From Caldisericia bacterium (lineage in GTDB: Bacteria; Caldisericota; Caldisericia; UBA6126), in NCBI GenBank assembly GCA_035363255.1, contig DAOSES010000006.1, positions 25,544 through 89,543 on the forward strand: DNA of 64,000 nt, read 5' to 3'. Numbering within the stretch: the stretch's first letter is position 1; each line of letters starts with the position of its first letter. A program made the position numbers and the translations under genes. The notes beneath the pieces were generated by a model. The model was not told the origin of the DNA. It ran no database searches and was given only the letters and a program-made list of their open reading frames with translations. Of this stretch, positions 1,251 through 35,407 are shown piece after piece.

Positions 1251-1953
1251 ACTACAACTAACTAAAGAAGAAAGAAACAAACTTATTGTAGATCATCTTT
1301 GGATTGTAGATTATTTGGCACATAAATTTTCTGATGGAAAAAATATTGCCTTAGAAGACTTGAGGTCAGTAGGTGGAATAGGTTTAGTTAAAGCAGCAGA
1401 CAATTATGAGGACAACATGGGTACAAGCTTTTCCACCTATGCTACTTTAATTGTGCAAGGGGAAATACGACATTATCTACGAGACAGAGCTGATATATTG
1501 CGTATTCCTCGAAAATATGTTGATAATTATAAAATTATTCAAGAAACAATACAGGAATCACTTAATCAAACCAAACAAGCACCAAGCCTCGAAGAAATCC
1601 ATCTAAAAACAGGACTAGAAAAAAAAGAAATTGTCGAATCTCTTGAAGCTGCTCATGCCAAGTTTCCTTTGTCTTTGGATGAACCTTTAAACCAAGATGG
1701 AGAAAAGCTGAAAGTTTATGATACTGTGCCTACTCAGGGTGATGATCCTGCCACAATGATCCAGCGGATTACCATCAATACAGCCTTGCAAAAACTGGAA
1801 CCCACTGAACGAAAAAGTATAGTACTAAAATATCAGTATGATTTAACTTATGAAGAAATTGCAGAAAAGTTGGGACTAAAAACTGGTAAAGTAGTTAGAT
1901 CGATACAAACTGGACTAAAGAAACTTAAAAAGTATCTCATTGAGGGAGAATAA
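1243..1953 (+). CDS. Sigma-70 family alternative sigma factor, group 3 (FliA/SigF/WhiG-like).
   Basis: Region 2 (TYATLIVQGEIRHYLRD) and region 4 helix-turn-helix motifs of alternative sigma factors. Start is ambiguous: TTG at 1222 or ATG at 1243. Confidence 0.75.
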   Translation: MAKLQLTKEERNKLIVDHLWIVDYLAHKFSDGKNIALEDLRSVGGIGLVKAADNYEDNMGTSFSTYATLIVQGEIRHYLRDRADILRIPRKYVDNYKIIQETIQESLNQTKQAPSLEEIHLKTGLEKKEIVESLEAAHAKFPLSLDEPLNQDGEKLKVYDTVPTQGDDPATMIQRITINTALQKLEPTERKSIVLKYQYDLTYEEIAEKLGLKTGKVVRSIQTGLKKLKKYLIEGE

Positions 1954-1989
1954 GGAGATGTTTCACGTGAAACATCTCCTTATTCTCCC
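1944..1989. terminator. 46-nt perfect palindrome (23+23, centre CACGTG) spanning both stop codons of the convergent sigma-factor and mnmG genes. Putative bidirectional terminator or RNA stem.
   Basis: gggagaataaggagatgtttcac|gtgaaacatctccttattctccc is its own reverse complement. TAA at 1951-1953 and TTA (complement TAA) at 1980-1982 both lie inside it. Confidence 0.7.
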
Positions 1990-3851
1990 TGCTCAGGTTT
2001 CCTGATATACCCTATCAAAGCTAAAATATCTGCGGGAGTTACTCCAGATAATCTTGTGGCTTCTTGTATCGTATCTGGTAGTTCTTCACTAAGAATTTTC
2101 CTTGCTTCTTTTGACAAAAAAACCAATGAATGGTATGGAATACTTTTACTGAGAGTGTAGCTAGCCATACGTTGCATCGTTTTCATTTCATTGTGTTCTC
2201 GCAAAATGTATCCTTCGTATTTTGCTTCAATCTCCAGCTCTTCTTTAACTTCCTCAGATAGCTCAGAAAAAGCTGTCGAAAGCTGTTCAATTTGAGACAA
2301 TGAATAATCAGTACGCTTTAAAAGTTGGAACAAGCTGGTATTTTTGTTAATTTCTGAAAAACCAAGGGTGCACAATAATTCAAGGTTTTCTTTACTTGGG
2401 GACAGAGTACTTTCTTGAAGAATATCTTTTCCCTTTTGTAGTTCGTTCATTTTTTGTGTAAATAGCTCAAAATGTTGATCGGTCACCAAGCCCAACTCTC
2501 TTCCTAAAGGGCTTAGACGCTGATCCGCATTATCTGCTCTGTTGAGCAAACGATACTCTACATGAGCTGGACTTATACGATAGGGCTCATCTAGTCGGCG
2601 ATTAATCATATCATCGATCATTACTCCAATATAGGATTCATATCGATGGAGTATCAATGGTTCCTTTTCTTTTACTTTTAAAACTGCGTTAATTCCAGCA
2701 AGTAGTCCTTGAGCTGCTGCTTCATCGTAGCCCGTGGTACCATTGAGCTGTCCTGCACAAAATAAAGCACTAATCTTTTTTGATTCCAAGTTCAAAGCGA
2801 GTTCTGAGGGATCCACAAAATCATATGCAATTGCATAAGCAGGGCGCATGATCCGAGCATTTTCAAGACCAGGCAAACTATGTAGTATTTCTTCCTGGCA
2901 ATGGGGGTAAACACTCATATTTAAGCCTGCGGCATACAACTCGTTGCTGTGAAAACCTTCCTGTTCGAGAAAAAAATTATGACGCATTCTATCGGGGTAC
3001 CATTTCACTTTTTCTTCGATTGATGGACAAGTACGGGGACCAACTTTAACCATTTGACCAGTGGAAGAAGGTTGATATTGTAGGTGTTTTTTGGTAATTT
3101 CAATCGTTTTTTCGTTGGTCCAGCCTAAATATGCGGGTAGTTGAGGATGATATATCTTGCGAGGAGAACGAAAAGAAAACTGAATCATACCCAAGTATCC
3201 ATCTTGACGATTCAACTGTGAAAAATCAACGCTTCTCTTATCGATTCTGGGAGTCGTACCCGTATTAAATCGTCTTATACTAAGACCTGCTTCAGCCAAG
3301 CTTTCAGATAAGCTTTTTGCTGACAATTCCGTACTGCGTCCCCCGTCATAAGCTGTAAAACCACAATGAATTCGTCCTTTGAGATATGTTCCAGTGGTAA
3401 GAATTACTGCACGAGCATGATATTCTTCGTCAAAAATATCTTTTACTCCGATACAGCGGTGGTTTTCGATGAGGATGGAATTGACCATGGTTTGATGTAA
3501 ATCAAGTAGGCTTTGATTTTCCAAAGTTTCTTTCATAGCTTGACTATACATCCACTTATCACATTGAACTCTTTTGGAACGCAGAGCCAAGCCTTTAGAA
3601 GTGTTTAATATTTGAATTTGAGATAAAGCTTTTTCTGCGTTAACAGCTATTTCTCCTCCTAAAGCATCAACTTCAGCAATAATCTGAGATTTACCTGAAC
3701 CTCCAATTGCTGGATTGCACGGCATCCAAGCAATAGTATCAAGATTTATAGTTAAGAGAAGAGTTTTGCATCCCATACGAGCAGAGGCTAATGCTGCTTC
3801 ACAACCCGCATGCCCAGCTCCAACCACAATGATATCGTATTGCTTAAACAT
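1980..3851 (-). CDS. mnmG: tRNA uridine-5-carboxymethylaminomethyl(34) synthesis enzyme MnmG (GidA).
   Basis: N-terminus MFKQYDIIVVGAGHAGCEAALASARMG (FAD fold) and the family length. Start taken at the internal ATG (3849-3851), not at the ORF-track start 3917. Confidence 0.93.
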   Translation of the reverse strand: MFKQYDIIVVGAGHAGCEAALASARMGCKTLLLTINLDTIAWMPCNPAIGGSGKSQIIAEVDALGGEIAVNAEKALSQIQILNTSKGLALRSKRVQCDKWMYSQAMKETLENQSLLDLHQTMVNSILIENHRCIGVKDIFDEEYHARAVILTTGTYLKGRIHCGFTAYDGGRSTELSAKSLSESLAEAGLSIRRFNTGTTPRIDKRSVDFSQLNRQDGYLGMIQFSFRSPRKIYHPQLPAYLGWTNEKTIEITKKHLQYQPSSTGQMVKVGPRTCPSIEEKVKWYPDRMRHNFFLEQEGFHSNELYAAGLNMSVYPHCQEEILHSLPGLENARIMRPAYAIAYDFVDPSELALNLESKKISALFCAGQLNGTTGYDEAAAQGLLAGINAVLKVKEKEPLILHRYESYIGVMIDDMINRRLDEPYRISPAHVEYRLLNRADNADQRLSPLGRELGLVTDQHFELFTQKMNELQKGKDILQESTLSPSKENLELLCTLGFSEINKNTSLFQLLKRTDYSLSQIEQLSTAFSELSEEVKEELEIEAKYEGYILREHNEMKTMQRMASYTLSKSIPYHSLVFLSKEARKILSEELPDTIQEATRLSGVTPADILALIGYIRKPEQGE

Positions 3852-4761
3852 GTGGAGTTTCCTTGTGGAGATAAACATTTCTGCAGGGGAAGGAGATGTC
3901 AATCTGTTCAAGATCAAATCTTTGCTTTAAAGTTTTTACCAACTCATGGCGAACGGGAAAAGAATCCATATAGTCTGAAAGTTTGATGCCAATGGAAAAT
4001 TCAATGTTTGAATCTCCAAAAGCTTTAAAGCGTACGGAAGGAATATGTTCATTGAAAGGAGATGCTTGCTGTTTTTGAATATTGGTGGCAATTTCTCGGA
4101 TGATGTTTTCAGCATGGTCAAGCTTACTATGATATGAGATTCCGGCTGAAAAAAAATAAATAAAGGCTTTTTCTGGGCGATGGAAATTTGTCACAATACT
4201 TTTCAACACAGTGGTATTCGGTATGAGAACCACGTTGTTGCTAAAGGTTTTGATGTGGGTGCTTCGCCAGGTAATGTCTGTGATGGTCCCCTGTAATTCA
4301 TTGATTTCCACAAAATCCCCCAATTGGATCATGGGATCGCTGATCAGTTGAAGACCAGCAAAAAAATCTGACAAGGATGATTGCATTGCTAACCCGATGG
4401 CTAGACTTGTTACTCCAAACGCTGTCAAAATGGGAGTGATATTCATATCAAGCTGAAGCAGGATCATTTTAATGGCAAGGATGTAGATAAGAATGTCACT
4501 TACTCGAATAAGCATATTGGGAGCTTTAGCAAATTCTTTTTTTATTTTCCATCGCGAATGAATGGAATAGGTAACAAGTTGAGAGCATAAAACTGCAATT
4601 CCAATAATTAAACCAATAACCCAGGTATCATTTACCCACTCCAAGTGGATATCTATCCAGGCAAAGTAATGTGCAACTGGATACAAAACGATCCAAACAA
4701 AAAGGTATATTAGCACCCGTCTGATTTTTTGGAGTATTTTATTTAAGTTGTGAATTTTCAT
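3844..4761 (-). CDS. MscS-family small-conductance mechanosensitive channel.
   Basis: Multiple N-terminal TM helices followed by an MscS beta-domain motif (GTITDITWRSTHIKTFSNNVVLIPN). Confidence 0.8.
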   Translation of the reverse strand: MKIHNLNKILQKIRRVLIYLFVWIVLYPVAHYFAWIDIHLEWVNDTWVIGLIIGIAVLCSQLVTYSIHSRWKIKKEFAKAPNMLIRVSDILIYILAIKMILLQLDMNITPILTAFGVTSLAIGLAMQSSLSDFFAGLQLISDPMIQLGDFVEINELQGTITDITWRSTHIKTFSNNVVLIPNTTVLKSIVTNFHRPEKAFIYFFSAGISYHSKLDHAENIIREIATNIQKQQASPFNEHIPSVRFKAFGDSNIEFSIGIKLSDYMDSFPVRHELVKTLKQRFDLEQIDISFPCRNVYLHKETPHV

Positions 4762-14778: not shown

Positions 14779-15672
14779 TCAAAGCACTATGCTTTTTTTT
14801 ATGTATTGGGCACTCGGACTGACAGCCAAACCGCCCATGGAGGTTTCTTTCAAGGAGCAGGGCATTAAATTGCCAATTTGCGCCATAGCATCAATCACCT
14901 CATCCAGAGGAATCAGGGTGGGGATTCCAGCCAATGCCATTTCAGCACAAGCCAGAGCATTGCTAGCCCCCATCACATTGCGCTTAACGCAGGGTAGCTC
15001 AACTCTTCCAGCTACCGGGTCGCATACCAGGCCCAGGATATTTTTTAACGCAAAAGCTGCAGCACTTTCCACCATGGAAGGTTCGCCTCCCATCAAATAT
15101 ACCAAAGCACCAGCACTCATAGCACTCGCAGAACCAACTTCAGCTTGACATCCATGGGTAGATCCCGATAACGAAGCTCGAAGGGCTATGATTTCTCCAA
15201 TTCCTCCTGCCACAAATAATGATTTTACCAATTCTTCGTCTGTTTTGCCATGGTTTTCTGCAATCGTTATCAAGACCCCAGGCATAACTCCACAAGCGCC
15301 AGCCGTAGGTGCTGCAACGATACGACCCATACATGCGTTTAGCTCCGAAACCGCTAAAACTCGACTTATCATGAGAGAGAAGTTTTTGCTTAGCAATGAA
15401 GCACCTTTTTGAGTAAATTGTTTCATGTGAAACGCTCCACCCTTTATTAATCCGCTTTTTGTCCGATTAGGCTCTTGTAGTCCTCTTTCGATGGATTCTC
15501 TCATAATGGTTAGATGATGATGCATTTTCCCTATCAATTTTGCTTCTGATATTTCAGTATTTTTGGCTTCGTAGCTCAGAAAAAAGTCGTAAAGATCAGG
15601 CAATGCCAAATCTTTCATTTGTTTGATAACATCAGCCCAGGCTTTGATGCGGATGCGTTTTGGTAAAGTCAT
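14779..15672 (-). CDS. sdaAA: L-serine dehydratase (Fe-S dependent), alpha subunit.
   Basis: AAPTAGACGVMPGVL and SLSGSTHGCQAEVGSASAM motifs. ATG overlaps the beta-subunit stop (TAATG). Confidence 0.9.
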   Translation of the reverse strand: MTLPKRIRIKAWADVIKQMKDLALPDLYDFFLSYEAKNTEISEAKLIGKMHHHLTIMRESIERGLQEPNRTKSGLIKGGAFHMKQFTQKGASLLSKNFSLMISRVLAVSELNACMGRIVAAPTAGACGVMPGVLITIAENHGKTDEELVKSLFVAGGIGEIIALRASLSGSTHGCQAEVGSASAMSAGALVYLMGGEPSMVESAAAFALKNILGLVCDPVAGRVELPCVKRNVMGASNALACAEMALAGIPTLIPLDEVIDAMAQIGNLMPCSLKETSMGGLAVSPSAQYIKKSIVL

Positions 15673-16343
15673 TATATGTCTTCTTTCCAACGAGGGACAG
15701 CTACAGCAGTATAAATGCCCTCTTTGTTTTTCAGAATTTCCATAAGGGTTTCAGGAACAGGAGTATCCAGTTTGAGTACTGCCAGAGCTCGTTCTTCAAT
15801 AGCATCTCGCGAAATCTGCATGTAAGCTATATTGATAGTATTTTTAGCCAGCAAATCGCCCACAAAAGCCACCATTCCGCAAGTGTCACGATACTCCAAT
15901 ATCAGAAGGTCGTGCTTACCCGAAAACTCGACCTTGTTATGGTTGATGTCCACAATTTTTGCATGCCCTCCGCCGATGGATATTCCACTGATGGTAAAAG
16001 GGTTTTGCTGATGCTGTTGGATCGTGATGGTGACGTAATTTGGATGTTTTTCAGGATCTTCCAAAAAAGTAAAATTAACTTCTATGCCCTCTTTTTTAGC
16101 TATTTCAAGGGCATTAGGGATGCGTTCGTCATCCATGGAAAAACCAAGCAAACCCCCTACCAAGGCATGCTGAGTGCCATGACCAGGGCCAGTATCTGCA
16201 AACGAATTGTACAGGCATATGCTTACTTTGTTAAATGGCTGGTGATAGACATTTCGAGCCAAAAGACCTATTTTGGCAGCTCCAGCCGTATGCGAGCTCG
16301 AAGGACCAATCATGACCGGGCCAATTACATCAAAAATCGACAT
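15672..16343 (-). CDS. sdaAB: L-serine dehydratase, beta subunit.
   Basis: N-terminus MSIFDVIGPVMIGPSSSHTAGAAKIG. C-terminal ACT-like domain. Confidence 0.9.
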   Translation of the reverse strand: MSIFDVIGPVMIGPSSSHTAGAAKIGLLARNVYHQPFNKVSICLYNSFADTGPGHGTQHALVGGLLGFSMDDERIPNALEIAKKEGIEVNFTFLEDPEKHPNYVTITIQQHQQNPFTISGISIGGGHAKIVDINHNKVEFSGKHDLLILEYRDTCGMVAFVGDLLAKNTINIAYMQISRDAIEERALAVLKLDTPVPETLMEILKNKEGIYTAVAVPRWKEDI

Positions 16344-21636: not shown

Positions 21637-21821
21637 TGTGTCCACAGTCCTTAGAACAGGCTATTTTGGTTAGCCTGAATCATGCCATTTCCTATCAAGT
21701 GGTTCATGAATGGGCTATCGAGGAAAGATCAGAAGACAAGTACGATGAGTATTTAAGACAACTAAAACAAAGAAGGAGAGCTATATGCCAAAAATACTCA
21801 AGTTTCGCCATAAGCTTCTAG
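21636..21821 (+). CDS. 61-aa hypothetical protein translationally coupled to the regulator (TAATG overlap).
   Basis: Its ATG overlaps the regulator's stop. Its 3' end overlaps the start of the next gene. No known family. Confidence 0.35.
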   Translation: MCPQSLEQAILVSLNHAISYQVVHEWAIEERSEDKYDEYLRQLKQRRRAICQKYSSFAISF

Positions 21822-22621
21822 TCCTTGCTTTGACAGGATTAGTTTTTTTGTTGAGCTTCTTTTTTTTCACTCGCTCAAACAATTCTTCTCCAGATGAAAT
21901 CATATTTCCCACAGGGTATATTCGAGCCGAAAACCATGCAGATTATGGATCTTATCTAATGTTTATTGAACACCCCGATTTTAACTATATTGCTGGGCAT
22001 CCAAATCCCATGTTCCCCCAGGAAGTAAACGCTTACCTTGAAAAAATGCATCAACTGATGCCATTGTTTAATCAATACTCGCTTAAAAAACAAGGTAGAG
22101 TATTTCCAGTGGTCTCCGAGGGAAAAGAAATGATCCTTGTGGCGTATTATGAGCCATTTGATGCAAGCTTAACCTTAGTTGATACTTCCCTCAAGGTATT
22201 GGATACCAAGCAAATCTATGAACCCCATTTTCAATACTTTGTTAGTGCAAACTTTCGAGATAGGCTTTGGATTAAAGGTGCTGATGGGGGAAACCAAGCT
22301 TACTTTGAAATGGTTGAGATTAGGATTTTAAACAATAAAATCGTTCCCCGTAAAATCAGTTGGGGGGATCGGTATTTTGAGGATACCTACAAAATCATCC
22401 ATCCTTCTACTAATCCTGAGATGAGGATACACCAAAGAAAAGAAGATTTTGGGTATTATCGTTATTGGTTTTTCATGATAATATTCACTTTCCCAATTTA
22501 TATCATTGCTTTTTTTAATGCATATCGAGTCCTTGTTTTGTCTATTTTGTTAGCTCTGGCTTTGTTTATACTTTGGAAGCTATTTATCAAAGACAGACTC
22601 GGTAAGCGGAAGAAAGAATAA
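21785..22621 (+). CDS. Hypothetical bitopic or polytopic membrane protein: N-terminal TM, extracytoplasmic domain of about 200 aa, two C-terminal TM helices.
   Basis: Hydrophobic LLVLALTGLVFLLSFFFF at the N-terminus and FFMIIFTFPIYIIAFF...LVLSILLALALFILW at the C-terminus. Confidence 0.55.
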   Translation: MPKILKFRHKLLVLALTGLVFLLSFFFFTRSNNSSPDEIIFPTGYIRAENHADYGSYLMFIEHPDFNYIAGHPNPMFPQEVNAYLEKMHQLMPLFNQYSLKKQGRVFPVVSEGKEMILVAYYEPFDASLTLVDTSLKVLDTKQIYEPHFQYFVSANFRDRLWIKGADGGNQAYFEMVEIRILNNKIVPRKISWGDRYFEDTYKIIHPSTNPEMRIHQRKEDFGYYRYWFFMIIFTFPIYIIAFFNAYRVLVLSILLALALFILWKLFIKDRLGKRKKE

Positions 22622-22624
22622 AAA

Positions 22625-22647
22625 AGAGGGAGCCTTTAAGCCCCCTC
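22625..22647 (-). terminator. Rho-independent terminator downstream of the PQQ-propeller gene (minus strand); it is also placed after the plus-strand membrane-protein gene.
   Basis: Minus strand reads gaggg-ggcttaaaggct-ccctc followed by TTTTT. Confidence 0.5.
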
Positions 22648-22675: not shown

Positions 22676-23917
22676 TTATTTAAGCAACTTGATTGCATAG
22701 ATCTGATCCTCGGTGCTAAAACAAACCAAGTTTTGATCAACAGCAATTGAAGTAATTTCACCAAGAGCATTATATTTCCATAGTGTTTTTCCAGATTTCG
22801 CCTCAAGACAATAGAGGGAATCTTCAGTGTTGAAAAAAACATGGTCGTTATTAGCGCTGAGATTAAAAATGATCTCATCAAAAGTTTGTTCCCATTGCTT
22901 CTTGCCATTTTGTGGATCCACTGCGAAAAGCTTAGCTTTTATCTCCTTGGTCGAGGAGCTCAATATATCATAAGTGCTTATCAAAACGTGATTGCCAGAT
23001 AATATGGGTCCGTGGTTCGATGTTCCCGTAGCTGTGAATTCCCATAGCTTTTTTTGGTTAGCCAGATTCAAGGCCAGTAAAGTAGTTTCAACTTTTTTTT
23101 CCTCGATAGAGGCATTCTGGGGCGTATTCGGATTAATTGCTCGAGAAAAGGAGTAAAAGGCTGTTTTGTTGTGGATGAGGGGGTGGCTCCAAATGTGTTG
23201 ATCTTCTTGTTCGGAAGGTGTCTCATTATGGAACCTGACTTTCTGACCTGTAGCAGTATCAAGAGCAATAAGCGAATCAAAGCTTTCATTGTTGAGGTAT
23301 AAGTTGCCTTCATCGAAACCTAAGCCATCAATCAAAAAAGGAAAATCCTGGGTATGAATATGATTTTTTAAGTCCAAACTCCATAGTTTTGACCCATTGC
23401 TAATATCAATGGCATGAATAACCCCATTGTCACTGGCATAATAGAGAGTATTCTGATCGATCAGGGGAACGCATGTAAACTTAGATGATGATGCGGCAGG
23501 ATATTTCCATAATAGTTTTCCTGAGGTTGAATCTAAAGCATATAAATAAGCATCACTGCATGCAAAATATACAACTTTGTCCGAAACAGCAGTGCTTGCA
23601 TTTATATAGTCAAACTTACCTGAAAAGCGCATCGCAAAACCCTCGGATTTGTAGTCCCAAAGAAGGCTTCCCTTTGTTTTGTCAATCGCGCTAAAAGTAC
23701 CATCTTGAGTGGACAAAAAGAGATTGTCTTTGCCAAGAACGAGCATGTTGTTGTGTCTTATGGGAAGATCTATCTTCGAAAATACCCACAGAATCGAAGG
23801 TAGATATGGTGTTTTTTCATACATGCTCAAGTTTGGGTCAATTGGTGATTCAATCTTTTTTGCGCATCCAACAGGTATCAGAAGGATTACCAGTAAGGAC
23901 AAAAGAACTGTTTTCAT
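22676..23917 (-). CDS. PQQ-like beta-propeller repeat lipoprotein (BamB-like fold).
   Basis: Signal peptide plus lipobox MKTVLLSLLVILLIPVGC. Repeated PQQ-type motifs (AIDKTKGSLLWDY; YALDSTSGKLLWKY; HAIDISNGSKLWS; ALDTATGQKV). Confidence 0.75.
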   Translation of the reverse strand: MKTVLLSLLVILLIPVGCAKKIESPIDPNLSMYEKTPYLPSILWVFSKIDLPIRHNNMLVLGKDNLFLSTQDGTFSAIDKTKGSLLWDYKSEGFAMRFSGKFDYINASTAVSDKVVYFACSDAYLYALDSTSGKLLWKYPAASSSKFTCVPLIDQNTLYYASDNGVIHAIDISNGSKLWSLDLKNHIHTQDFPFLIDGLGFDEGNLYLNNESFDSLIALDTATGQKVRFHNETPSEQEDQHIWSHPLIHNKTAFYSFSRAINPNTPQNASIEEKKVETTLLALNLANQKKLWEFTATGTSNHGPILSGNHVLISTYDILSSSTKEIKAKLFAVDPQNGKKQWEQTFDEIIFNLSANNDHVFFNTEDSLYCLEAKSGKTLWKYNALGEITSIAVDQNLVCFSTEDQIYAIKLLK

Positions 23918-24072
23918 TTTTTTGTTACCATCTTTAGATAGCTCCAGCATTCCCACACCCCCAACCTTCCTCCTTATTGTTTGCATTTATTTTATTACTT
24001 CTTTTACTTGATACAAGCTTTAGAGTGTACGATAATCCAAGGATGAATGTAAGAAATTTTATCTGATACACA

Positions 24073-24497: not shown

Positions 24498-27080
24498 ATG
24501 AAGCCCCAAATTAGAAGAACTATTTGGATCATAGGCAGTAGTGTGCTGGTTTTCACATTAATGACTGTTATGTCCTGGTTTTTATTGCCAAAGTCTGTTA
24601 CAGAGCCTCCGAAGGATGTCATCAAGAAGAAGGAACCAGTTTTAGCAGAGCCGAACTTAAAAAACAATACTATTGTCTACTCAGAACACGATCAGCCAAA
24701 GTTAGAGCGAATATTTTCCAACACCAAATTGGTAGCATACGATTTTCCTCAAGCTCCTGCAACGATTCATGCTCCTTCCGATAGGGGTCAAAAATCCGAC
24801 CAACTTATCATCAGCGACCATTTGTATCGCAAAAAAATTGTTTTGAAAACCACAGGAAGCCCTAACCCGATGAAAAATTTCCCGATTTGTATCGACCTGG
24901 ACACCCAGCAATGGATTGAAGAGGCCAAGCTGTCTATGATCAGCGAAAACCTATACTTTACCGACGAAGATGGCATCACCCTGCTTCCCTTTCATATTGC
25001 ACATGGCTATGGAAACGAGGCTACCCGTATATGGCTGATTATTCCTGAGCTTCCAGCATGGACAACGCAAAAGGAAATTTATTGTTACTATAGCAGGTCT
25101 TCGGATTATCCAGGTTTTAAACAAATTCCAGGCTTCCCACTCCAGGAAAGCTATTACGGCTGGTATGTCTTAGACGAGTTAAAAGATAAGCATGTGGTGG
25201 ATTTGTCGGGAAACATGAATCCTGCGGAACTGATTATTTCTTCGTATGAATCGGGCTGGTGGGGGCACAACTTTTCCGAGAATGAATCCTATATCTTTTT
25301 CAATGATTGGCGAAAATGGTATGAGCATGAAAGAAACAAGGGAGTTTATCTTACGTTGCCTGGAAAAAACCTTCAAGCACTATCCCAAAAAGGTGCTGTG
25401 GAATTCTGGTTCAAGCCTTATTATATCACTGAGCCCATCATCCAGCATTTTATGACCGATACAGGTCAGCATATCATGATAGGTATGCTTCCCGATCGAT
25501 CCATCTTTCTCCAGTTGGGATCCCGTCAAAACCGAATCATATGGAATACTTTTATTCACCAGGGCAATTGGTATCATCTCCAGCTCAGTTGGGATTTTGC
25601 AAAAAAGCAGGCAAAGCTTTACCTTTACGGAAAAGAAGTGCCTGTAAGATCTGGGCTTTCTTCTTTTTCCTGGAACCCTCCGACAGTATTAGGAGATCTG
25701 CATTTTGGGGGCTACTATGTAGAAAGTTCAAGTTATGGTTTTTCGGGTTTCATGGAAGGATTTCGTCTCCACAAAGCACCCTTGTCTCCCGAGCAGGCCA
25801 ATCAAAACCACAAATACAACCATTTTCGCTATTATTTTCCTACCCATACCATGGAAAAAGAAGAAATTGCTCAGAGCAACAAAGAAGACCAGCTTTCTCT
25901 CGATTTTACTACGAGCAATACTCTCCCCGTGAATGAAAAGATTTCGATCAATACCATCTATGCCATGCCCATTCATTACAGCGATGCTTGGAGTGGAAAA
26001 GTTTACACTGGCAAAGAGGATTTGGTCAACATTATTCAAAATCCTGACGAATACCAGGAAGTATTTGGTATGAGCTCTCATTTCTATTCCTATGTGGGCA
26101 CGGAGGTCAGCATTCAAGAAAGTTTTCTTTTGGAATACATTGCTTTGAAAATTAATGAGCCCAAGCTTATTGAGGATATCAAGATCAGTTTTTCCTGGCT
26201 GGTGGATTGTAAGCACCCATATTACCCCTACCTTTATAGTTCCTTGTCTTGGACGGATAAAGCTCTTGCCTGGCTTTTCCCTCCTGCAAATGCCTGTGGT
26301 CCTTTTTATTCGTATAAGCTGTTGGGGGAAGCCAAGTTGAAGCTGGTGGGCATTGTGAATGGAGTTTGCTGGTATAAGCCGGAAAAACCTTTATATGTAA
26401 ATCCCCTGGCTACAATTATGCAATTGGAATACTTACCCTCCAAAGAAAAAGGAGAGCTCCATATCAAAATGGAAGACTTAATTTTTCTGGACAGTGCCAA
26501 GCAATTCCATCGATCCAAACTACATCGATCCAAACCTGAGCTTTTGTTTGAATATGAGCGAATTGATGAAGAAATCTATCATCATTTTAATTCTGAGTAT
26601 ATTGCCAAGCAGATGCCTATGGAGAAAGGATCTGTGGAGTTGACCACCAATGAGCAGAATGAACTGGTTTTAATGTTGCGCAATATTGGAACGGATCCAA
26701 TTCAGTTAAACGTGAAAAGTAGATATTATTTTCAAGAAAACCTCTTTACTCACTTGTTGATTTCAACAGAGGATCAGCAAACAATACTCGAAATTAGTTT
26801 GTTAGATTTTTACCAGTATCTGAATGATGCTCCTATCCCTGTGGGACATTACCTCTACATACCCCTTCTCTTTGAAGATGAAAGTAAAAACTATGGCGAC
26901 TTAAAAGTGACGCTTCTGCGAAAAAAAGGTTATCTTGATGATTTTGACCAACAGACAAAAATCATTTCCTGGGCATTAGACAACAAGCCTTTCGAATTTC
27001 GTTCCATCAACGAGGAAGGGATGATTTGGAAGGAAGTCCACAAAGACAGCCAGGGTCGTTTGCGCATAGGAGGAGACTAA
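24498..27080 (+). CDS. Membrane-anchored (signal-anchor) protein with a LamG/concanavalin-A-like jelly-roll domain; 860 aa.
   Basis: N-terminal TM IWIIGSSVLVFTLMTVMSWFLL. The central region (WYHLQLSWD...KLYLYGKEV...GFMEGFRLHKAPLSPEQ) matches the LamG pattern. Stop overlaps the next start (TAATGA). Confidence 0.6.
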   Translation: MKPQIRRTIWIIGSSVLVFTLMTVMSWFLLPKSVTEPPKDVIKKKEPVLAEPNLKNNTIVYSEHDQPKLERIFSNTKLVAYDFPQAPATIHAPSDRGQKSDQLIISDHLYRKKIVLKTTGSPNPMKNFPICIDLDTQQWIEEAKLSMISENLYFTDEDGITLLPFHIAHGYGNEATRIWLIIPELPAWTTQKEIYCYYSRSSDYPGFKQIPGFPLQESYYGWYVLDELKDKHVVDLSGNMNPAELIISSYESGWWGHNFSENESYIFFNDWRKWYEHERNKGVYLTLPGKNLQALSQKGAVEFWFKPYYITEPIIQHFMTDTGQHIMIGMLPDRSIFLQLGSRQNRIIWNTFIHQGNWYHLQLSWDFAKKQAKLYLYGKEVPVRSGLSSFSWNPPTVLGDLHFGGYYVESSSYGFSGFMEGFRLHKAPLSPEQANQNHKYNHFRYYFPTHTMEKEEIAQSNKEDQLSLDFTTSNTLPVNEKISINTIYAMPIHYSDAWSGKVYTGKEDLVNIIQNPDEYQEVFGMSSHFYSYVGTEVSIQESFLLEYIALKINEPKLIEDIKISFSWLVDCKHPYYPYLYSSLSWTDKALAWLFPPANACGPFYSYKLLGEAKLKLVGIVNGVCWYKPEKPLYVNPLATIMQLEYLPSKEKGELHIKMEDLIFLDSAKQFHRSKLHRSKPELLFEYERIDEEIYHHFNSEYIAKQMPMEKGSVELTTNEQNELVLMLRNIGTDPIQLNVKSRYYFQENLFTHLLISTEDQQTILEISLLDFYQYLNDAPIPVGHYLYIPLLFEDESKNYGDLKVTLLRKKGYLDDFDQQTKIISWALDNKPFEFRSINEEGMIWKEVHKDSQGRLRIGGD

Positions 27081-30000
27081 TGAAAAGTTTTGGAAAAGCT
27101 GTTTCCAGACTCTTATCCTGGATTATCGTAGCCTTGCTCTCGTTGGGGCTAGCCCTGCCTTTCGGTCCCAGGCCTGTGAAAGCTCAAAGCAGCACTCTGG
27201 CAGACCTATACCTTGATTTGCCTTTCAACTACCGTATGGAAGCCTTCAAGCCCAAGTTTAACCTTGAAGACTACCAGCTCTTTGAAAAGTTTTTTTTACA
27301 TGCGAGTTTGTTTGAAAACCGATATATTCTCAAACGTTCCTATTTTGCCAATTACAGCAAATCTTTTACCTTGATAGACAAGCGTAGTAATGATTTTTAT
27401 ACCCTCCATCTACAGATTTTAAGCTACCTGGTCTTGGAAGATAAGGATAAGATTGAATCGGGGATTCCTTTTTATTTGTCTTTTATCCAAAACTCCCAAG
27501 GGCAAGCTCTGGCCTTTATCCATCGTTCGGAAATGTATGATTTCCCCTTGTATGGCGTGCTTTGTGAAAGCGATGGAAGTTTGATCAAGGAGTGGGAGCT
27601 GTCAAAAAAACCCAATTTAAGTACGTATTCCTATTTTACTCTCTATCAAGAGCTAGCTTCAGATTTGACAAATTCTGGTATGCAGGCCTTTAACAAACCG
27701 CTCAGTGCTTTGTTTTCTGCTTGGATGTGGGGCACTTATCTGAGTGAGCAGAATATACAGACTTCCAACCCCAATCCCTATACCTGGGACTTGCTCGGAG
27801 TTCCCAAAGAGCGAGATGATTTGATGGCTTATTGCTCCGAACAATATCTCATGGAGGAAACCGTGTATTCCTGGAACGAGGATGATTCTCTGCAAGCACT
27901 ACAATGTATTCAAATCCTTTTTCAGGATAGGCGGGAGCTTAGCCAAACTACTTTCACATTTGATCGATCGTATCTTGTGCATCACCCCAATGAAACTATG
28001 GTTTATCTTCCCCTGCTTCAGGTAGTGACGCGTCAAGGTAAAGGCTCCAGTGGAGCCGCTCTATCTGGACTGAAAGATGCTCAAGGCAGGTGGAATTTTT
28101 GGATTCAAGGTAATTTTTACTTTTCAGATCAGACTTATCTGAGATCCCCATCTCTTTATCATACCTTGTTTTCTGGCTATCCTGCTTCTGATAGTTCTTA
28201 TGTGCATTATCTTACGACTCTTGGACTTGCTCTCTATCAGCAAATAGATTCTTCTTGTCTTCCTATGATAGTTTTGTCCCATGCGATTGCGCTATATGAA
28301 GCCAATACTTATAAGAATACAGCGCATACAGCTGATCTTGCGCTAGAAGAACAAACCATGGCTCCTGTTCCCCGAGGAAAACACGCTCATTTGTATCCTG
28401 ATGCTGAAGTTTTTGCAAAGCAGTTTGCTGAAAATACCGAAGTTCAGTCTGACACTCTGGAATATTCCAAAGAGGACTTGGATCAATTAGTACATTTATT
28501 CTTAAACTCAGTTAACAAGCAAGATAATGAGCTTGCATCCTATGATTTTACTCTTCACAAATCGTTTCGCCTTCTCGACCAGAAAACTAAGCAAAGCTAT
28601 CGCTTTTTGCCCAGTTTTAACCTTACGGTCAAGTTTAAAAACCATTCAAGCTTTCCTTTTTTCTCAAATTCTGCCCTTCAATTGCCCGATAAGACCTGGC
28701 TGATTTACACTGGTTATGGTAGCCTCTGTTTCAAGAGTGGTTTTGTAAGTGATTTAGCTTCATGGCCATCCATGAGTATGTATTTAAGCGAGATATATCT
28801 CTCCTACCTACTTCATTATAGTTACCTGCTTCGAAAGCCAATCACCAACGAAGAGCTGAGAGATTTTACTTTCCTCTTTGGGGCAATGTCATGGAGTAAG
28901 TTTGATCAATTGACGAGAGTCATGCCTTATCCAAGCCTAAAAAAGACAACATTATCTTCCGCCAACATGGTGGTAACTGCCAAACCCCGTAAGGTGCAAA
29001 GAGGTGCGAATTATTATATCGACATGCGACTCACTAAAAACCTGGAAAAGAGTGAATGGATCAAGATAAAGTTTCCCAAAGCTTGCGTTTTCCCCTCTCA
29101 AGAGGGCACCAAACCACCAGGAGACCATCTTCCCGAATACATGGAACTCGACTACGAAAACAACATTATAACACTTACCCTTATGAAAAAACTCTTCATA
29201 AAAGAATATGAGGATGGTTGGATACGTATTACTATTCCTGATGTTTATGGCTTCAAAAATCCTCATTTGAGTGGAGCTTATTATTTTGAGTTTTCTACCT
29301 CTGCTGAGATCGAGTGGCAAAAGTCAGACTCAGTCTTGTTTGTGGAAAGCCGTATAGGAGTGCCTGAAGGTATTCCTGAAGTTAACACTGTTCCAAGTAT
29401 CGCAGGGCAAAATGCAAGCTATACGATAGCCTTTAATGTTGGTGAGGGTGGATGGCTTAAACAAAATGAAGCCCTTATAAGGCTCAGATTTCCCAAAGAT
29501 ACGGCATTTTCCATCAATCAGATCCCTGGCGAAATGATTTTAGTTAATGGAGTCCCTTTATCTGTTCGCCCCTCTCCCAGAGGGCAAAACCTTATTTTCA
29601 ACACTCCCGTGGAAGTCGAAGATTCTGAGAGAGTGGTGATCCAGATTGATGCTAAAGCGGGAATTATCAACCCTGCGCAAGCGGGAGACTATACTATTGA
29701 AGTATCCACCCTGCCTGCAGACCCTGAGTGGGTAGCTTCCAAAGCTTTTACGATTAGTCAATCATTCGCTATGGAAGTCAAACCGAGAAAAATAGGGAGC
29801 TCTGCAAGCTATAATTTCACTTTTGAAATAGAAAAAACTCTGGAAAGCTCGGATTGGATTAAACTTGGCTTCCCTCAAGGTACCATCATTGATCCTCCCA
29901 TCCCCGAGCAAGAGCCCGAAAGGACGCTACGTTTAAAAAGATTCAATGAGATTATTGTTATTGGACTTTCTCCTTGTGGTCCTTGTCCAACTCTTCCCAA

Positions 30001-32158
30001 GATCGAGTATTATCCCGATGGCTCCATGAAAAGCATCCAGGTATATACGCCCATTAAAATAGATCCAAGTCTGCCAGGATACAATATTATAAACATAGTT
30101 TGCCCTGAGGAATGCGGATTTAAAACTCCCGCAAAGGAAGGGTTTTATGAGTATAGGGTTTCCACCCAAAGGGAGACCAAAGAAATCAGCACAAGCTTTG
30201 AAATTGTTCAAAGCCAGATAGGTGTTCCGACAGGGGTGCCTCAGGTGATGGTCGATCCTCCGAGCGTGGATGCTCAAGCAGGATACAAGGTCAATTTTAA
30301 TGTAGGTCGAGGGGGATGGTTAAAGGCTCATCGTGATTTTATCCGTTTACGCTTTCCCAAAGGCACTCTTTGGGCTGTTTCTCCCGACAAATTCAAGCCC
30401 GAGTGGATCAAAATCAACGGCAAACCCTTATCCGCCAAAGCAAATCTGAGCTCTGAAACCCTTAGCCTGTTGGTGCCCATGGATATTGAAGATTCGGAGC
30501 GGGTGTTGGTGGAAATCAGCGAAGCTCTTGGCATAACAAACCCTCCCATAGCCGGGGAATATCAAGTGGAAGTAGCTACCTCAGCAGATGCCTGGGCAAA
30601 GTCTGAAGTCTACACGATTACAGGAGAATTGGAGGAAGACAGAATAAAGATAGTGAGTTTTATGATTGATCCTCACCCTCCCTATGCTCATGTCATTAGT
30701 GACTATCAAATTAGAATTCGTTTCAGCGATACCTTGCCCCCCAAAGAAGGCGATCAAGTTCAAATTGATTTGGGCCATCAGGGTTTATTTCTCACCAAAA
30801 CCATTTCAGATCCAAAAGATATGAAGGGGCTTTCTTTGCTTTTGAGGAAAATTCCAAATCCTGACCCTGGGGAATACACTTTGAAGGTTACCCTTCTGGA
30901 AGAGAGCGCAAGCTATACTTATCGAATATTGCATCCAATTCCTACGAGCCGTATTATTCTCGAAGGAGGGAAAAAAGGTAAGAACAATTGGTGGCTTGAG
31001 CCTCCGAAGATTTCATTCGAAGTATCCGATCCTGAGGCTAAAGTGGTTTTCTGGTGGAACGATGATAAGCCAAAGCCAACCAACGTTTCTTATCAAACGC
31101 AATATCCCTTGCCCCGCGTGTTGGATGGGGGTCAATTCAAAGCCAAGCTATGGTATTATGCTTACACCGAATATGGAGAAGAGGAACCCAAGTTTGAAGA
31201 AATCTGGGTGGATACGGTTTTGCCCGAAATAGTTATCGAACAACCTTCAAGCCAAAACGTACTTACTCGAGAGAAAGAGCTTGAAATCAGTGGGCGTGAC
31301 ACCTTAGTTAAAATCTCAATCTATGGAAAAGAGGTTTTAATATACGACACCCACCTTCTCAAGATTAATGGAGTGCTTGTGGATAGAGACCCAAAAGATG
31401 GGAGCTTCTCGCATCAGCTCCTTCTCGAAGAAGGCGCAAACCTGATCCTCATTGAAGCGGAAGACGAGGCTGGCAATCGATTGACCAGAGAATACAAGGT
31501 AGAGCTGGATACCACTCCTCCTGATATTCAGATAGAGTCTCCAAAAGCTATGCAAACGGTAGTCAACCGTGAAAAGAAAGTGCTCATCAAAGGGCGTTTG
31601 GACGACCCCGGAGCAGAGCTGTTAATTCAGGGAAAGATCGTTGATATAGCCGAGGATGGGCAATTTGAGCATGCTTATATTGTCTCAACAGGGCTCAACA
31701 CAATTTCATTAATGGCAAGCGATAAGGTGGGTAACATTCAGAAAAAAGAGCTTCAATTCTGGTTTGGACATACCATTCTCATGCAAATAGGCAACAAAGA
31801 AGCCAGCAACAACGGAATTAAACAGCAACTCCTACTGGCTCCCTTTATTCAAAATGGACGCACCCTGGTGCCTTTTCGATTTATCGGAGAAGAGCTGGGA
31901 GCTAGAATCGATTTTACGTTCCATCCAACAAGCAGATTGGTTCATACAGTGTCCTACCAACTGGAAGAAGACCTGATTGTACTCACCATCGGAAGCAAGA
32001 CTGCTCAGGTGAATGGAGAAGCTGTTGGTCTGGATGTTGCACCTCAGATTATCCAAGGCACTACCGTGGTGCCCATCCGCTTTATCGCAGAAAACCTGGG
32101 TTGTGAAGTGCTTTGGTCGGTACCCGAGCAAAGGATTAGTATCAGCTATCCTAGATAG
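27079..32158 (+). CDS. Giant secreted surface protein (about 1693 aa). It carries Ig-like repeats, a C-terminal [AED(E/D)AGN...LDTxPP] module, and two Cu-amine-oxidase-N-like anchoring domains.
   Basis: Signal peptide MKSFGKAVSRLLSWIIVALLSLGLALPFGPRPVKAQS. Three diverged repeats of about 120 aa (NFNVG(R/E)GGWLK...RLRFPK). C-terminal GRTLVPFRFI and GTTVVPIRFIAENLG motifs. Confidence 0.75.
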
Positions 32159-32762: not shown

Positions 32763-33551
32763 CTAAGTAAAATCTATTTTGTTATCAATTTGCAGTAACA
32801 TTGGTAGGCATAAGAGAGTTGTCCAACCAATTAACAGAGCCACTGAGTTAAAAAAAATCAAGATATTTGTTTGATCAATAAATGCTTTTTTTATGGTGAA
32901 ATAGGGCATAAACATGATCACATCAATAAAATTGTTGTAGATAAACACAAATACTATTGCCGCAAGGACATAAAAGAGATAGTGCGACAGGAGTTTTTTG
33001 AGTTTGTTTTGTTGACTCAAAGAGATGAAGGTAAAGAAAAAAATGCCCACCGCATTGAGGAAATTTAGGCTGAGTATCATGAGTATGTGAAAATAGAAAG
33101 AAACAGAAACATAGGTCATGATTAAGCTATGAGCTGAAGGGTAGTCTTGACTAACTGGAGAAATATAGATTTTTAACAAAATCAGAGAAACAAGATATTG
33201 AAAAGTGCTATAAAAAAAGAGCTCGAGATTAAAACCAATCAGTTTAACTAATAAAACTTGTTTGCTTCTCACTGGCAAAGGACGGAAAAAAGAAAAATTT
33301 TTCAAACGGTAAATATCGTAGCTGGCAAAAAGAGCTAAAAATGTCAGAGGAAGGATATAAAGTAAACCGATCTTTGTAGTAAGAAAGCTGATATACAATT
33401 CAGTACGAAAGAAAATATCAAAGTGTTTGCAAACGGGAAGGAGGTTGAAGTAAACAAACTGAATGTTGTAAATCATCAAGAAAGGAAAAACTATGACAGA
33501 GCGCCTCAAGCGCAGTTTGAAGTCATGTTTTAGTAGTTTTGATGTGTTCAA
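32763..33551 (-). CDS. ABC-2-type membrane permease (paralogue 2 of a tandem pair).
   Basis: 262 aa with 6 TM helices; about 30 % identical to the adjacent 262-aa gene. Confidence 0.6.
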   Translation of the reverse strand: MNTSKLLKHDFKLRLRRSVIVFPFLMIYNIQFVYFNLLPVCKHFDIFFRTELYISFLTTKIGLLYILPLTFLALFASYDIYRLKNFSFFRPLPVRSKQVLLVKLIGFNLELFFYSTFQYLVSLILLKIYISPVSQDYPSAHSLIMTYVSVSFYFHILMILSLNFLNAVGIFFFTFISLSQQNKLKKLLSHYLFYVLAAIVFVFIYNNFIDVIMFMPYFTIKKAFIDQTNILIFFNSVALLIGWTTLLCLPMLLQIDNKIDFT

Positions 33552-33563
33552 TTTGTGTCCCTA

Positions 33564-34352
33564 TCAGATAAAGTCAAGTCTCTTATCGACCAACACCATG
33601 AACGGAATACTAAAAAACAAAGACCCTCCAATCAAAAATAATGCGATATAAATAGCATTGATGGGGCTTACACTCTCAATGTAGTTTTTGTAAAAAGTAC
33701 TTGAAATGAAGGAAACCATGTTGTTGAAGATATGGTTAAAAAAAAGAAGACACAGAATGGCTATACTCGTGTGAATTAGGTAAAAACCGATTTTTGATGA
33801 AGACTTGATATGATTGTTGAAAGAGAAGTAGGAATAAAAAAACAATACGATGGCATTGATCATGTTGATCGCTAAAAGGGTCAGACAATGAAACAACAAG
33901 GAAGAGGATACAAATGTTTTAAATAGGGCATGACTTTCAGGATAAGATATACTTTGAGGCAGGATGAAAGCATAAAAAAACACTAAACTTATCAGGTATT
34001 GAAGAGTGCCAAAGAAAAAAAACTCCGCATTAGCTCCTATCAGCTTTGCCCAAAGGATTCGAGTACTGGAATGGGGAATTTGTCGAAAAAACGCATAGCT
34101 TGGCAGATGATAAATGTCAACAAAAGCAAAAAAAGCTAAAATTGCTAAAGGAAGAAAGTAAACAAAACTTAGCTCGTTGATTAAGAGAGACACCCCTTCG
34201 TTTCGAGCAAAAGTGCTTGTAAGAAGCTGAGAGGCAGGAATGTAGTGAAAAAGCAATACTAGTAAGTTGTAAACAAGAACACCCGAAAGCCCTATATTTA
34301 ATCTATGAATACGCTTTCTATATTCGTATTTGATCAAGCTTAGAATGAACAT
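33564..34352 (-). CDS. ABC-2-type membrane permease (paralogue 1).
   Basis: 262 aa with 6 TM helices; placed immediately after the ABC ATPase gene. Confidence 0.6.
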   Translation of the reverse strand: MFILSLIKYEYRKRIHRLNIGLSGVLVYNLLVLLFHYIPASQLLTSTFARNEGVSLLINELSFVYFLPLAILAFFAFVDIYHLPSYAFFRQIPHSSTRILWAKLIGANAEFFFFGTLQYLISLVFFYAFILPQSISYPESHALFKTFVSSSLLFHCLTLLAINMINAIVLFFYSYFSFNNHIKSSSKIGFYLIHTSIAILCLLFFNHIFNNMVSFISSTFYKNYIESVSPINAIYIALFLIGGSLFFSIPFMVLVDKRLDFI

Positions 34353-35040
34353 ATTTTTCCCAGTATAGGTTTACAATGGACATATTTCGCTCTATGCGTA
34401 AATCTTCAGCGTTGGCTGTGAGTTCAATATGGCCTTGCCTGATAAAAATCACATCACTTAAAATATGTTCAATTTCCTCGACATGATGTGTTGAAATCAT
34501 CATGGCGCAATTATCGTGAAATGCATTGAGGATCTCAGTTAAAAACATATTGCGTGTGACGATGTCCATAGCTTCCAAGGGCTCATCCAGAAGATATATC
34601 GAAGCTCCTACTCGACATAAAACTAAGATTAGTTTTAATGATGAGATGTTTCCGCTGGAAAGTTTGGAAACCATGATTTTGGGGCTAAGATCAAATTGCC
34701 TTAATAGTTTGTTGCAATAAGCCAAATCAAAATCGGGAAAAAAATCCTTGTAAAAATCTACTGCATCAATCACCCTCATCCAGCGAGGAAAGGGATTCCC
34801 CTGTATGAAGCCAGCTATCTGCTTCATTGAAGAGTGATTTAATGGAGCTCTTTGATACAAAATTTGACCCATGCTGGGCTGTGTGTAACGCAACAGAAGC
34901 TTGAAGAGAGATGTCTTCCCGCTACCGTTGGGCCCCAACAAACCAAGCAAGGACCCTGGAAAAATAGTTAAATTTATATCTGTTAAAGCGTATTGAGTGG
35001 AGTACTTTTTATATACTTTTTTTAGCTCAATCGCGCCCAT
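34318..35040 (-). CDS. ABC transporter ATP-binding protein.
   Basis: Walker A GPNGSGKTS, signature LSSGN, Walker B IYLLDEP, H-loop. Confidence 0.85.
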   Translation of the reverse strand: MGAIELKKVYKKYSTQYALTDINLTIFPGSLLGLLGPNGSGKTSLFKLLLRYTQPSMGQILYQRAPLNHSSMKQIAGFIQGNPFPRWMRVIDAVDFYKDFFPDFDLAYCNKLLRQFDLSPKIMVSKLSSGNISSLKLILVLCRVGASIYLLDEPLEAMDIVTRNMFLTEILNAFHDNCAMMISTHHVEEIEHILSDVIFIRQGHIELTANAEDLRIERNMSIVNLYWEKYVHSKLDQIRI

Positions 35041-35407
35041 GCAGATCATCCCACTGATCTGAATATGGCTTAATAATGGTGATGAGTTCTGATTTTGAAA
35101 TACCAAGGCTTCTGAGTTCCTGGAAAAATTCGCTCAGTTTTTCTTTGTAGGCATCTTCTTTGAGGCGGTTGATAAGGTTTTTGTCGTCAGTAACATAATA
35201 ACCTACTCCACGAGCTGGAATTAAAAGCCTGTCACGTACAAGTTCAAACATAACGCGCTGAATAGTGCTGTTGGTAACGTTGTATTCGGCGGCAAGGGCT
35301 CTTACGGAAGGAGTCATGGATCCTGCTCGGTATTCTTTGCGTAAAATTTTGTACTTAATTTGATCTAAGATCTGCAAATAGATTGGCACCTTTGTGTTAA
35401 AATGCAT
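35027..35407 (-). CDS. GntR-family transcriptional regulator, short YtrA-like subtype.
   Basis: 126 aa. GntR wHTH pattern: PIYLQILDQIKYKILRKEYRAGSMTPSVRALAAEYNVTNSTIQRV. Confidence 0.8.
   Translation of the reverse strand: MHFNTKVPIYLQILDQIKYKILRKEYRAGSMTPSVRALAAEYNVTNSTIQRVMFELVRDRLLIPARGVGYYVTDDKNLINRLKEDAYKEKLSEFFQELRSLGISKSELITIIKPYSDQWDDLHGRD

Follow-up and report, generated by a model that had tools for sequence, protein, structure and literature searches.

A probable parS-type centromere palindrome extended into the ends of convergent sigma-factor and mnmG genes in Caldisericia

In the 64,000-nucleotide stretch of Caldisericia DNA analysed here (the window), a sigma-factor gene and mnmG converge on a gap of 26 nt, and the locus raises the question of what kind of element could bring the ends of two genes into one and the same perfect palindrome. 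The preliminary description of this DNA had reported a perfect, loopless inverted repeat of 46 nt (23+23) between the two genes, and had considered it solely as an element acting at the RNA level. Upon measurement the repeat proved to be as perfect and as loopless as described, and its size was corrected to 48 nt, with AGGGAGAATAAGGAGATGTTTCAC being followed at zero spacer by GTGAAACATCTCCTTATTCTCCCT and the two arms being 100% complementary (Table 1). The sigma gene ends in GGA GAA TAA at 1945-1953, giving the protein tail ...YLIEGE-stop, and mnmG, whose stop codon lies at 1980-1982, ends in the same nine bases on the other strand, giving ...KPEQGE-stop. The left arm takes in the last three sigma codons (E-G-E, the first one partly) and the TAA that follows them, and the right arm takes in the last mnmG codons (Q-G-E, again the first one partly) together with their TAA. 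The two stop codons are thus located in opposite arms and the same G-E-stop is encoded on opposite strands, both as originally noticed.

Table 1. Positions, within the 64-kb window, of the palindrome, its core, the two genes that it joins and an ordinary terminator of the same genome
Feature	Position	Strand	Basis or description
Sigma-70 family sigma factor, group-3-type, 236 aa	1243-1953	+	Pfam Sigma70_r2/r3/r4
Extended perfect palindrome	1943-1990	none	24+24 nt, inverted-repeat measurement
Invariant 18-bp block ATGTTTCACGTGAAACAT	1958-1975	none	Identical in 12 lineages
parS core TGTTTCACGTGAAACA	1959-1974	none	16/16 match to the consensus ParB/Spo0J site
mnmG/gidA, 623 aa	1980-3851	-	Pfam GIDA and its C-terminal domains
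Canonical intrinsic terminator, GAGGGGGCTTAAAGGCTCCCTC then T6	22626-22647	-	9-bp GC-rich stem

The palindrome was found to be single-copy within the 64 kb, even with 3 mismatches allowed (shuffled sequences gave no match), and no other close inverted repeat of at least 14 nt in the 64 kb exceeded 86% complementarity. With one copy in 64 kb, a dispersed palindromic repeat (REP/MITE-like) or a mobile element was ruled out. Covariance models of Rfam 15 gave no match at gathering score anywhere in the window, which ruled out a known RNA family. The predicted RNA fold of either strand was a 22-bp stem closed by a 4-nt loop, at about -44 kcal/mol and with a z of about -8, so that the stem proposed earlier for both convergent transcripts is indeed predicted on both strands, at 22 bp with a loop and not at the 23 bp claimed.

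parS is the centromere-like DNA site of the ParB/Spo0J dimer and serves chromosome segregation; once bound, ParB loads there in the form of a sliding clamp that depends on CTP, and from it the partition complex is nucleated; ParABS systems are widespread in bacteria. The centre of the palindrome agrees with the 16-bp parS consensus at every position, a match for which the chance expectation is about 1e-5 in 64 kb, and reading the palindrome as an RNA element only had therefore missed its identity. Chromosomal parS has been reviewed as being "mainly TGTTNCACGTGAAACA" (PMC7022226), and 5'-TGTTTCACGTGAAACA has been reported as the optimal parS sequence of B. subtilis (PMC4333373). The 18-bp core was identical in 12 Caldisericia lineages, among which sigma identity ranges from 55 to 92% and the surrounding columns have a mean identity of 67%. 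Such invariance of sequence, at such depth, points to a sequence-specific DNA-binding protein and not to RNA pairing alone. In a scan with one genome per species, the 18-mer was found, among the matches listed, in nearly all bacterial phyla, and as a positive control an ORF with a ParB box was found in the same 8-kb piece at 45 of the 120 18-mer loci listed. Judged by its sequence and its conservation, the element is a member of the chromosomal parS family, and we infer that ParB would bind at 1959-1974 and load there as a clamp.

The position of the site among the relatives is informative as well. In the 12 Caldisericia lineages, parS always lies just past the mnmG stop codon, and it tracks the 3' end of mnmG and not the sigma gene: where ferritin and desulfoferrodoxin genes are inserted after sigma (L028/L154), parS is still found directly past the mnmG stop; in another lineage (L155) it adjoins mnmG at a distance of 464 nt from sigma; and in two loci where mnmG is not adjacent to sigma (L152 and L153), parS is absent. 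mnmG, also named gidA, is a classical origin-region gene. ParA, ParB and DnaA were sought in the 64-kb window (Pfam searches on about 43 ORFs, and motif regexes), in a further 10 kb past its right-hand edge, and, in the 92% relative, over 10 kb to each side of the site, and none of the three was found; neither an oriC nor a GC-skew switch was seen within the window. We assume a cognate ParB, as well as proximity of the site to the origin, given the prevalence of ParABS and the standing of mnmG/gidA as an origin-region gene. Searches of the literature for ParB in Caldisericum or Caldisericota yielded nothing usable.

A second parS-like site, TGTTTCATGTGAAACG, carrying 2 mismatches, was observed at 15419-15434, within a serine dehydratase alpha-chain gene (14779-15690, minus strand). 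Sites with 2 mismatches are expected by chance about 0.02 times per 64 kb, and this one may be a weaker parS.

The comparison between lineages relied on orthologues of the sigma gene, which were 92, 90, 89, 73, 70 and about 55-58% identical to it and were located on long contigs with the same neighbourhood, in the conserved order of a BNR/Cu_amine_oxidN1 surface protein, sigma and then convergent mnmG. A metagenome scan with the sigma alignment returned mostly sigma factors of gut Firmicutes, at ~35% identity, and only about 10 true orthologues. Several other features of these neighbourhoods were observed in passing. Very large proteins of a secreted or surface type (up to 1849 aa) that end in Cu_amine_oxidN1 are encoded in the window at 3-1250, 27026-32158 and 45120-50669, and in a further locus (L230) at 2194-3873; the coding sequence of the one that precedes sigma overlaps the start codon of the latter, and the Cu_amine_oxidN1 ending may be a lineage-specific module for anchoring at the cell surface. 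More distant relatives carry a small ORF of 129-148 aa between the BNR protein and sigma, overlapping the sigma start (L024 2562-3008, L026 2619-3008, L028 2619-3014); it has no Pfam match, is absent from the window lineage, and could be an anti-sigma or partner-switching component that has since been lost. Finally, three tandem ORFs of exactly 262 aa each occupy 32763-35106 on the minus strand of the window, one with a Pfam ABC_tran match and the other two with no Pfam match.

Having identified the core, we turn to the arms that surround it. Counted from the centre, arm lengths in the 12 lineages were 24, 24, 24, 24, 22, 21, 17, 16, 16, 14, 11 and 10 nt, and in 12 of 12 the arms were perfectly Watson-Crick symmetric, with pairing falling abruptly to background beyond them. 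The outer arms of the window (1943-1957 and 1976-1990) correspond to sequence that varies between lineages and yet is symmetric in each: outside the core, the arms read, for example, ...GAATAAGGAG, ...GAATAAAGAG, ...GAATAAGGGA, ...GAATAATAATG and ...GAATAAGGTT, and further examples are TGATTGT, TATGCGGT, AAGATTG and GGAAC. Pairs were counted on junctions anchored at the centre and left ungapped; a MAFFT alignment had put in a gap that broke the mirror register. Counted in this manner, each of the positions 10-14 from the centre was paired in 10 to 12 of the 12 lineages, by 3-4 different Watson-Crick pair types, and over positions 10-24 as many as 72% of the cells were paired in the true register, compared to 29-40% when the partner was slid by 1-3 nt. 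The four closest lineages vary at five arm positions, each change being mirrored. The protein tails change in step with the arms, IEGE-stop of sigma and QGE-stop of mnmG being replaced by IEEE-stop and QEE-stop, respectively, in L018. The expectation that compensatory changes would be found in relatives was thereby borne out for the outer arms, over 12 lineages.

One pair of close relatives is informative here. L156 and L026 share about 95% identity in their flanking coding DNA and differ by a block swap beside parS, in which 5 nt to its left and 10 nt to its right are replaced and the arm passes from 11 nt to 16 nt. Of the arm versions of the orthologous site that are independent, about 7 in number, at least 5 are extended (at least 14 nt).

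Extension of this kind is seen around parS in bacteria at large. We sampled about 155-157 untruncated parS sites from 120 listed loci (L030-L149), several related Streptomyces included. Among these listed matches, perfect arms of at least 13 nt (13-23) were present at 29 of about 157 sites, where about 1 would be expected; the share of extended sites is thus about 18-19%, as against under 1% expected, and at the listed sites the probability of one more pair at each step was 0.6-0.9, as against about 0.25-0.3 by chance. Extended sites came from many phyla, and the GC content of the extensions (0.51) was that of their loci (0.52) to within a hundredth. A T- or A-run marked the end of an arm in only 6 of the 29 extended sites, and both ends in only 2. 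Tandem parS arrays were also found in which each copy carries its own unrelated extension: at L052 (4159, 4287 and 4492, with arms of 17, 16 and 14), at L128 (3580 and 3673, with arms of 17 and 17), at L054 (6004 and 6059) and at L099 (1125 and 1167). The scarcity of T-runs, the lack of GC enrichment and the tandem arrays together indicate that most extended parS sites are not terminators. Conclusions on gene context in this survey were drawn from the low-GC subset only, because calls of ORF context are unreliable in the high-GC survey genomes. Extended parS sites with a terminator-like appearance were observed in other phyla at L043 5337 (a Treponemataceae MAG), L078 2006 and L134 2969, an example with the look of a textbook bidirectional terminator being AAAAAGAGCGGCCG-parS-CGGCCGCTCTTTTT; as read from such sites, some lineages do have their parS within a terminator.

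How, then, would an ordinary parS come to reach into two genes? We consider it probable that the palindrome has grown from the parS core into both gene ends via template switching, and that a role for the RNA hairpin is possible and secondary. In the mechanism that we propose, the 16-bp parS, itself palindromic, would nucleate a hairpin during replication, upon which the polymerase would copy one flank from the other by intramolecular template switching. Copying of this kind would both homogenise and lengthen the arms, and could have pushed the symmetry out to 24 nt per arm, leaving both genes to end in the mirrored GGAGAATAA; extension would halt at the point beyond which changes in the protein tails are not tolerated. 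As a secondary role, the 22-bp RNA hairpin that results may help to end or stabilise both convergent transcripts.

Several of the observations above speak for template switching. Its capacity to generate perfect inverted repeats, as well as to repair and enlarge them, has been documented (PMC8794818, PMC7202029, PMC13100816), and it yields double changes in one step (PMC8794818). Because it makes paired changes in a single step, the mirrored substitutions found in the relatives are not proof of selection at the RNA level. Arms that are perfect, end abruptly and are unrelated between lineages suggest a process acting on DNA, as does the general excess of extended parS sites across bacteria, and the clustered block change between L156 and L026, by which one flank became the reverse complement of the other, bears the signature of a template switch. 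Template switching is therefore, to judge from these sequences, what most likely gave rise directly to the extension and to arms that are perfect in every lineage. Extension in at least 5 of about 7 versions in Caldisericia, set against about 19% across bacteria, hints at locus-specific selection beyond neutral mutation, for example for a hairpin between the convergent genes.

For such a hairpin, the evidence on termination is divided. In the window, no T-run follows either arm and the terminator scan made no call, and a canonical terminator at this palindrome was ruled out, as the U-tract is absent. In two relatives (L024 and L158), a T-run does follow the parS hairpin and the terminator scan was passed, on the sigma strand only. 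The earlier proposal of a bidirectional terminator is thus supported in part, by these two lineages and not by the window copy. The canonical terminator listed in Table 1 sits between the convergent genes 21785-22621 (plus strand) and 22676-23986 (minus strand), an indication that ordinary terminators, short and GC-rich in contrast to the parS hairpin, are in use in this genome. Terminator-like matches across the window were only slightly above the expectation from shuffled sequence.

The strongest competitor to our reading is built on this hairpin. It holds that selection maintains the arms because the RNA hairpin terminates or stabilises the 3' ends of both mRNAs, parS being put to dual use and template switching supplying no more than the variation. 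The stable stem predicted in both transcripts is what it would call for, as are the location of the site exactly between convergent genes, the T-runs and terminator calls on the sigma strand of L024 and L158, the maintenance of structure through a turnover of arm sequence that has given at least 5 independent versions, and the extension of the Caldisericia site far more often than of parS in general. These points have to be held against the window lineage itself, which has no U-tract on either strand and no terminator call, and against a stem that is AU-rich and much longer than the 9-bp GC-rich stem with T6 at 22626-22647; moreover, L026 and L155 manage with arms of 10-11 nt, and most extended parS sites across bacteria have neither T-runs nor GC enrichment and in some cases stand in tandem arrays. 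We consider this explanation unlikely on balance, though one to be taken seriously, and regard a terminator or stabiliser role of the modelled hairpin as plausible in a secondary capacity and not as the primary identity of the element. The other RNA-level proposals, namely processing by RNase III at this site or enforced antisense pairing of the mRNA 3' ends, appear very unlikely. A perfect 22-bp double-stranded RNA stem is in principle sufficient as an RNase III substrate, and a stem of that length is predicted here; yet nothing specific was found in support of either proposal, a role in pairing only would leave the sequence-invariant 18-bp core unexplained, and arm length ranges from 10 to 24 nt among the relatives.

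Two further explanations concern the core and the palindrome as such. That the core might be the operator of some other dimeric DNA-binding protein, with its likeness to parS a coincidence, could draw on the finding that no ParB gene was seen in about 95 kb of linked sequence; it has to contend with the match at 16 of 16 consensus positions where about 1e-5 are expected in 64 kb, with the presence of the same 18-mer across phyla and of a ParB-box ORF within 8 kb at 45 of the 120 listed loci, and with the location beside mnmG/gidA, a gene of the origin region, and we deem it highly improbable. Lastly, the palindrome could be a fold-back chimera produced during assembly, or else one member of a family of dispersed palindromic repeats of the REP or MITE kind. 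Fold-backs at palindromes can arise in de Bruijn assemblers, and one is visible at a contig end in L106; nonetheless, two independent assemblies made with longer k (ENA ERZ1756056 NODE_136 and JGI 3300009707 Ga0116195_1000082) cross the palindrome into unique flanks. Ten Logan contigs (k=31; L003, L006-L013 and L017), from different runs and reaching the palindrome from either side, all break off once they have entered it by exactly 30 nt (k-1), the behaviour of a de Bruijn graph at a real palindrome that exceeds k. These ends therefore imply the palindrome just as the longer-k read-through does, and on both grounds an assembly artefact was rejected. The same sigma and mnmG proteins are moreover encoded on contigs from many samples, the palindrome is conserved with variation in relatives from many samples, and it occurs only once in the window, all of which leaves an artefact or a dispersed repeat with a vanishingly small probability. 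It was also observed that de Bruijn assemblies are systematically broken at the sigma/mnmG locus by parS-centred palindromes whose length exceeds k, and that in L106, an Acidobacteriota MAG, a parS-centred palindrome of at least 64 nt runs from 6767 to the contig end; there the parS palindrome most likely seeded a fold-back artefact during assembly.

To summarize, the data favour an ordinary parS whose palindrome probably grew outward by template switching. By its sequence, the site places a putative centromere-like parS in Caldisericota, a phylum that has received little study and is represented mainly by MAGs, and it could serve there as an anchor for locating the origin region. The class of element is a known one; what appears unusual, as far as the sequences tell, is that the palindrome of a centromere has come to include the stop codons and the C-terminal codons of two genes, with which it co-evolves. 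As such it would constitute a clear case, found in nature, of symmetry in DNA that spreads outward from a palindrome bound by a protein and enters two coding sequences, with both proteins gaining the same C-terminal residues and changing them in step. It also cautions against taking "compensatory" changes in a stem, where they stand alone, as evidence of a functional RNA structure.

The wider survey may reach further. About 18% of the perfect parS sites, among the matches listed, stand in extended palindromes, for which we found no description in the searchable literature; nor did we find there an account of parS in terminators, hairpins or cruciforms, or of template switching around parS or altering the C-terminal codons of two genes together. 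The "dual-function element" of a 2026 preprint is a 5' mRNA structure in parB and not parS. Of all the findings, the surplus of extended parS palindromes in bacteria most deserves a systematic count. It is conceivable, and in our estimate rather improbable, that palindrome growth around parS is a general and functional feature of the centromere and not a neutral side effect, which would make the extended site a dual DNA/RNA element. This reading draws on the roughly one in five perfect parS sites that have a lineage-specific extension of their own, and on the repeated renewal of the extension at the Caldisericia site. Were this so, a loading site for ParB might be shielded from convergent transcription by doubling as a transcript-ending hairpin or, alternatively, extrusion of a hairpin or cruciform might gate ParB loading, since the hairpin would display only half a parS.

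Compared with known systems, the locus resembles chromosomal parS most closely. Its 16 bp are the same as the optimal or consensus parS, TGTTTCACGTGAAACA (known sites include the eight of B. subtilis and those of Caulobacter and Hyphomonas), and it is conserved, over a phylum-level clade, and adjoins a gene of the origin-region type, mnmG/gidA. It differs from the textbook parS, a 16-bp site that often lies within genes, in that it fills the whole gap between two convergent genes and stands, in the window copy, within a perfect palindrome of 48 bp to which both stop codons belong; it differs also in that a cognate ParB was not located in the sequence covered (the window and the linked 10-kb pieces). 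The Noc-binding sites (NBS) and other sites of the ParB family are likewise palindromes of 14-16 bp for dimers of the ParB fold. The NBS sequence is ATTTCCCGGGAAAT, and the window core matches parS and not NBS.

Bidirectional intrinsic (Rho-independent) terminators likewise consist of one symmetric hairpin common to two convergent transcripts, and the T-run after the stem in L024 and L158 adds to the likeness. The window copy, in contrast, has neither a U- nor an A-tract, its stem is of 22 bp and AU-rich where those of intrinsic terminators are of 5-12 bp and GC-rich, and its centre is conserved in sequence, which is not required of terminators. REP/MITE-like repeats come in several copies per genome, unlike the one copy found in 64 kb. 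The likeness to quasi-palindromes that are hotspots of template switching, known from E. coli reporters (PMC7202029) and from evolutionary cases (PMC8794818, PMC13100816), extends to the perfect arms with abrupt ends, to the multi-nucleotide blocks that make one flank the reverse complement of the other, and to pairs of which both members change together, with intermediates not seen. Those studies dealt with reporters, RNA genes or yeast promoters, whereas here the palindrome at the centre is a parS between two genes.
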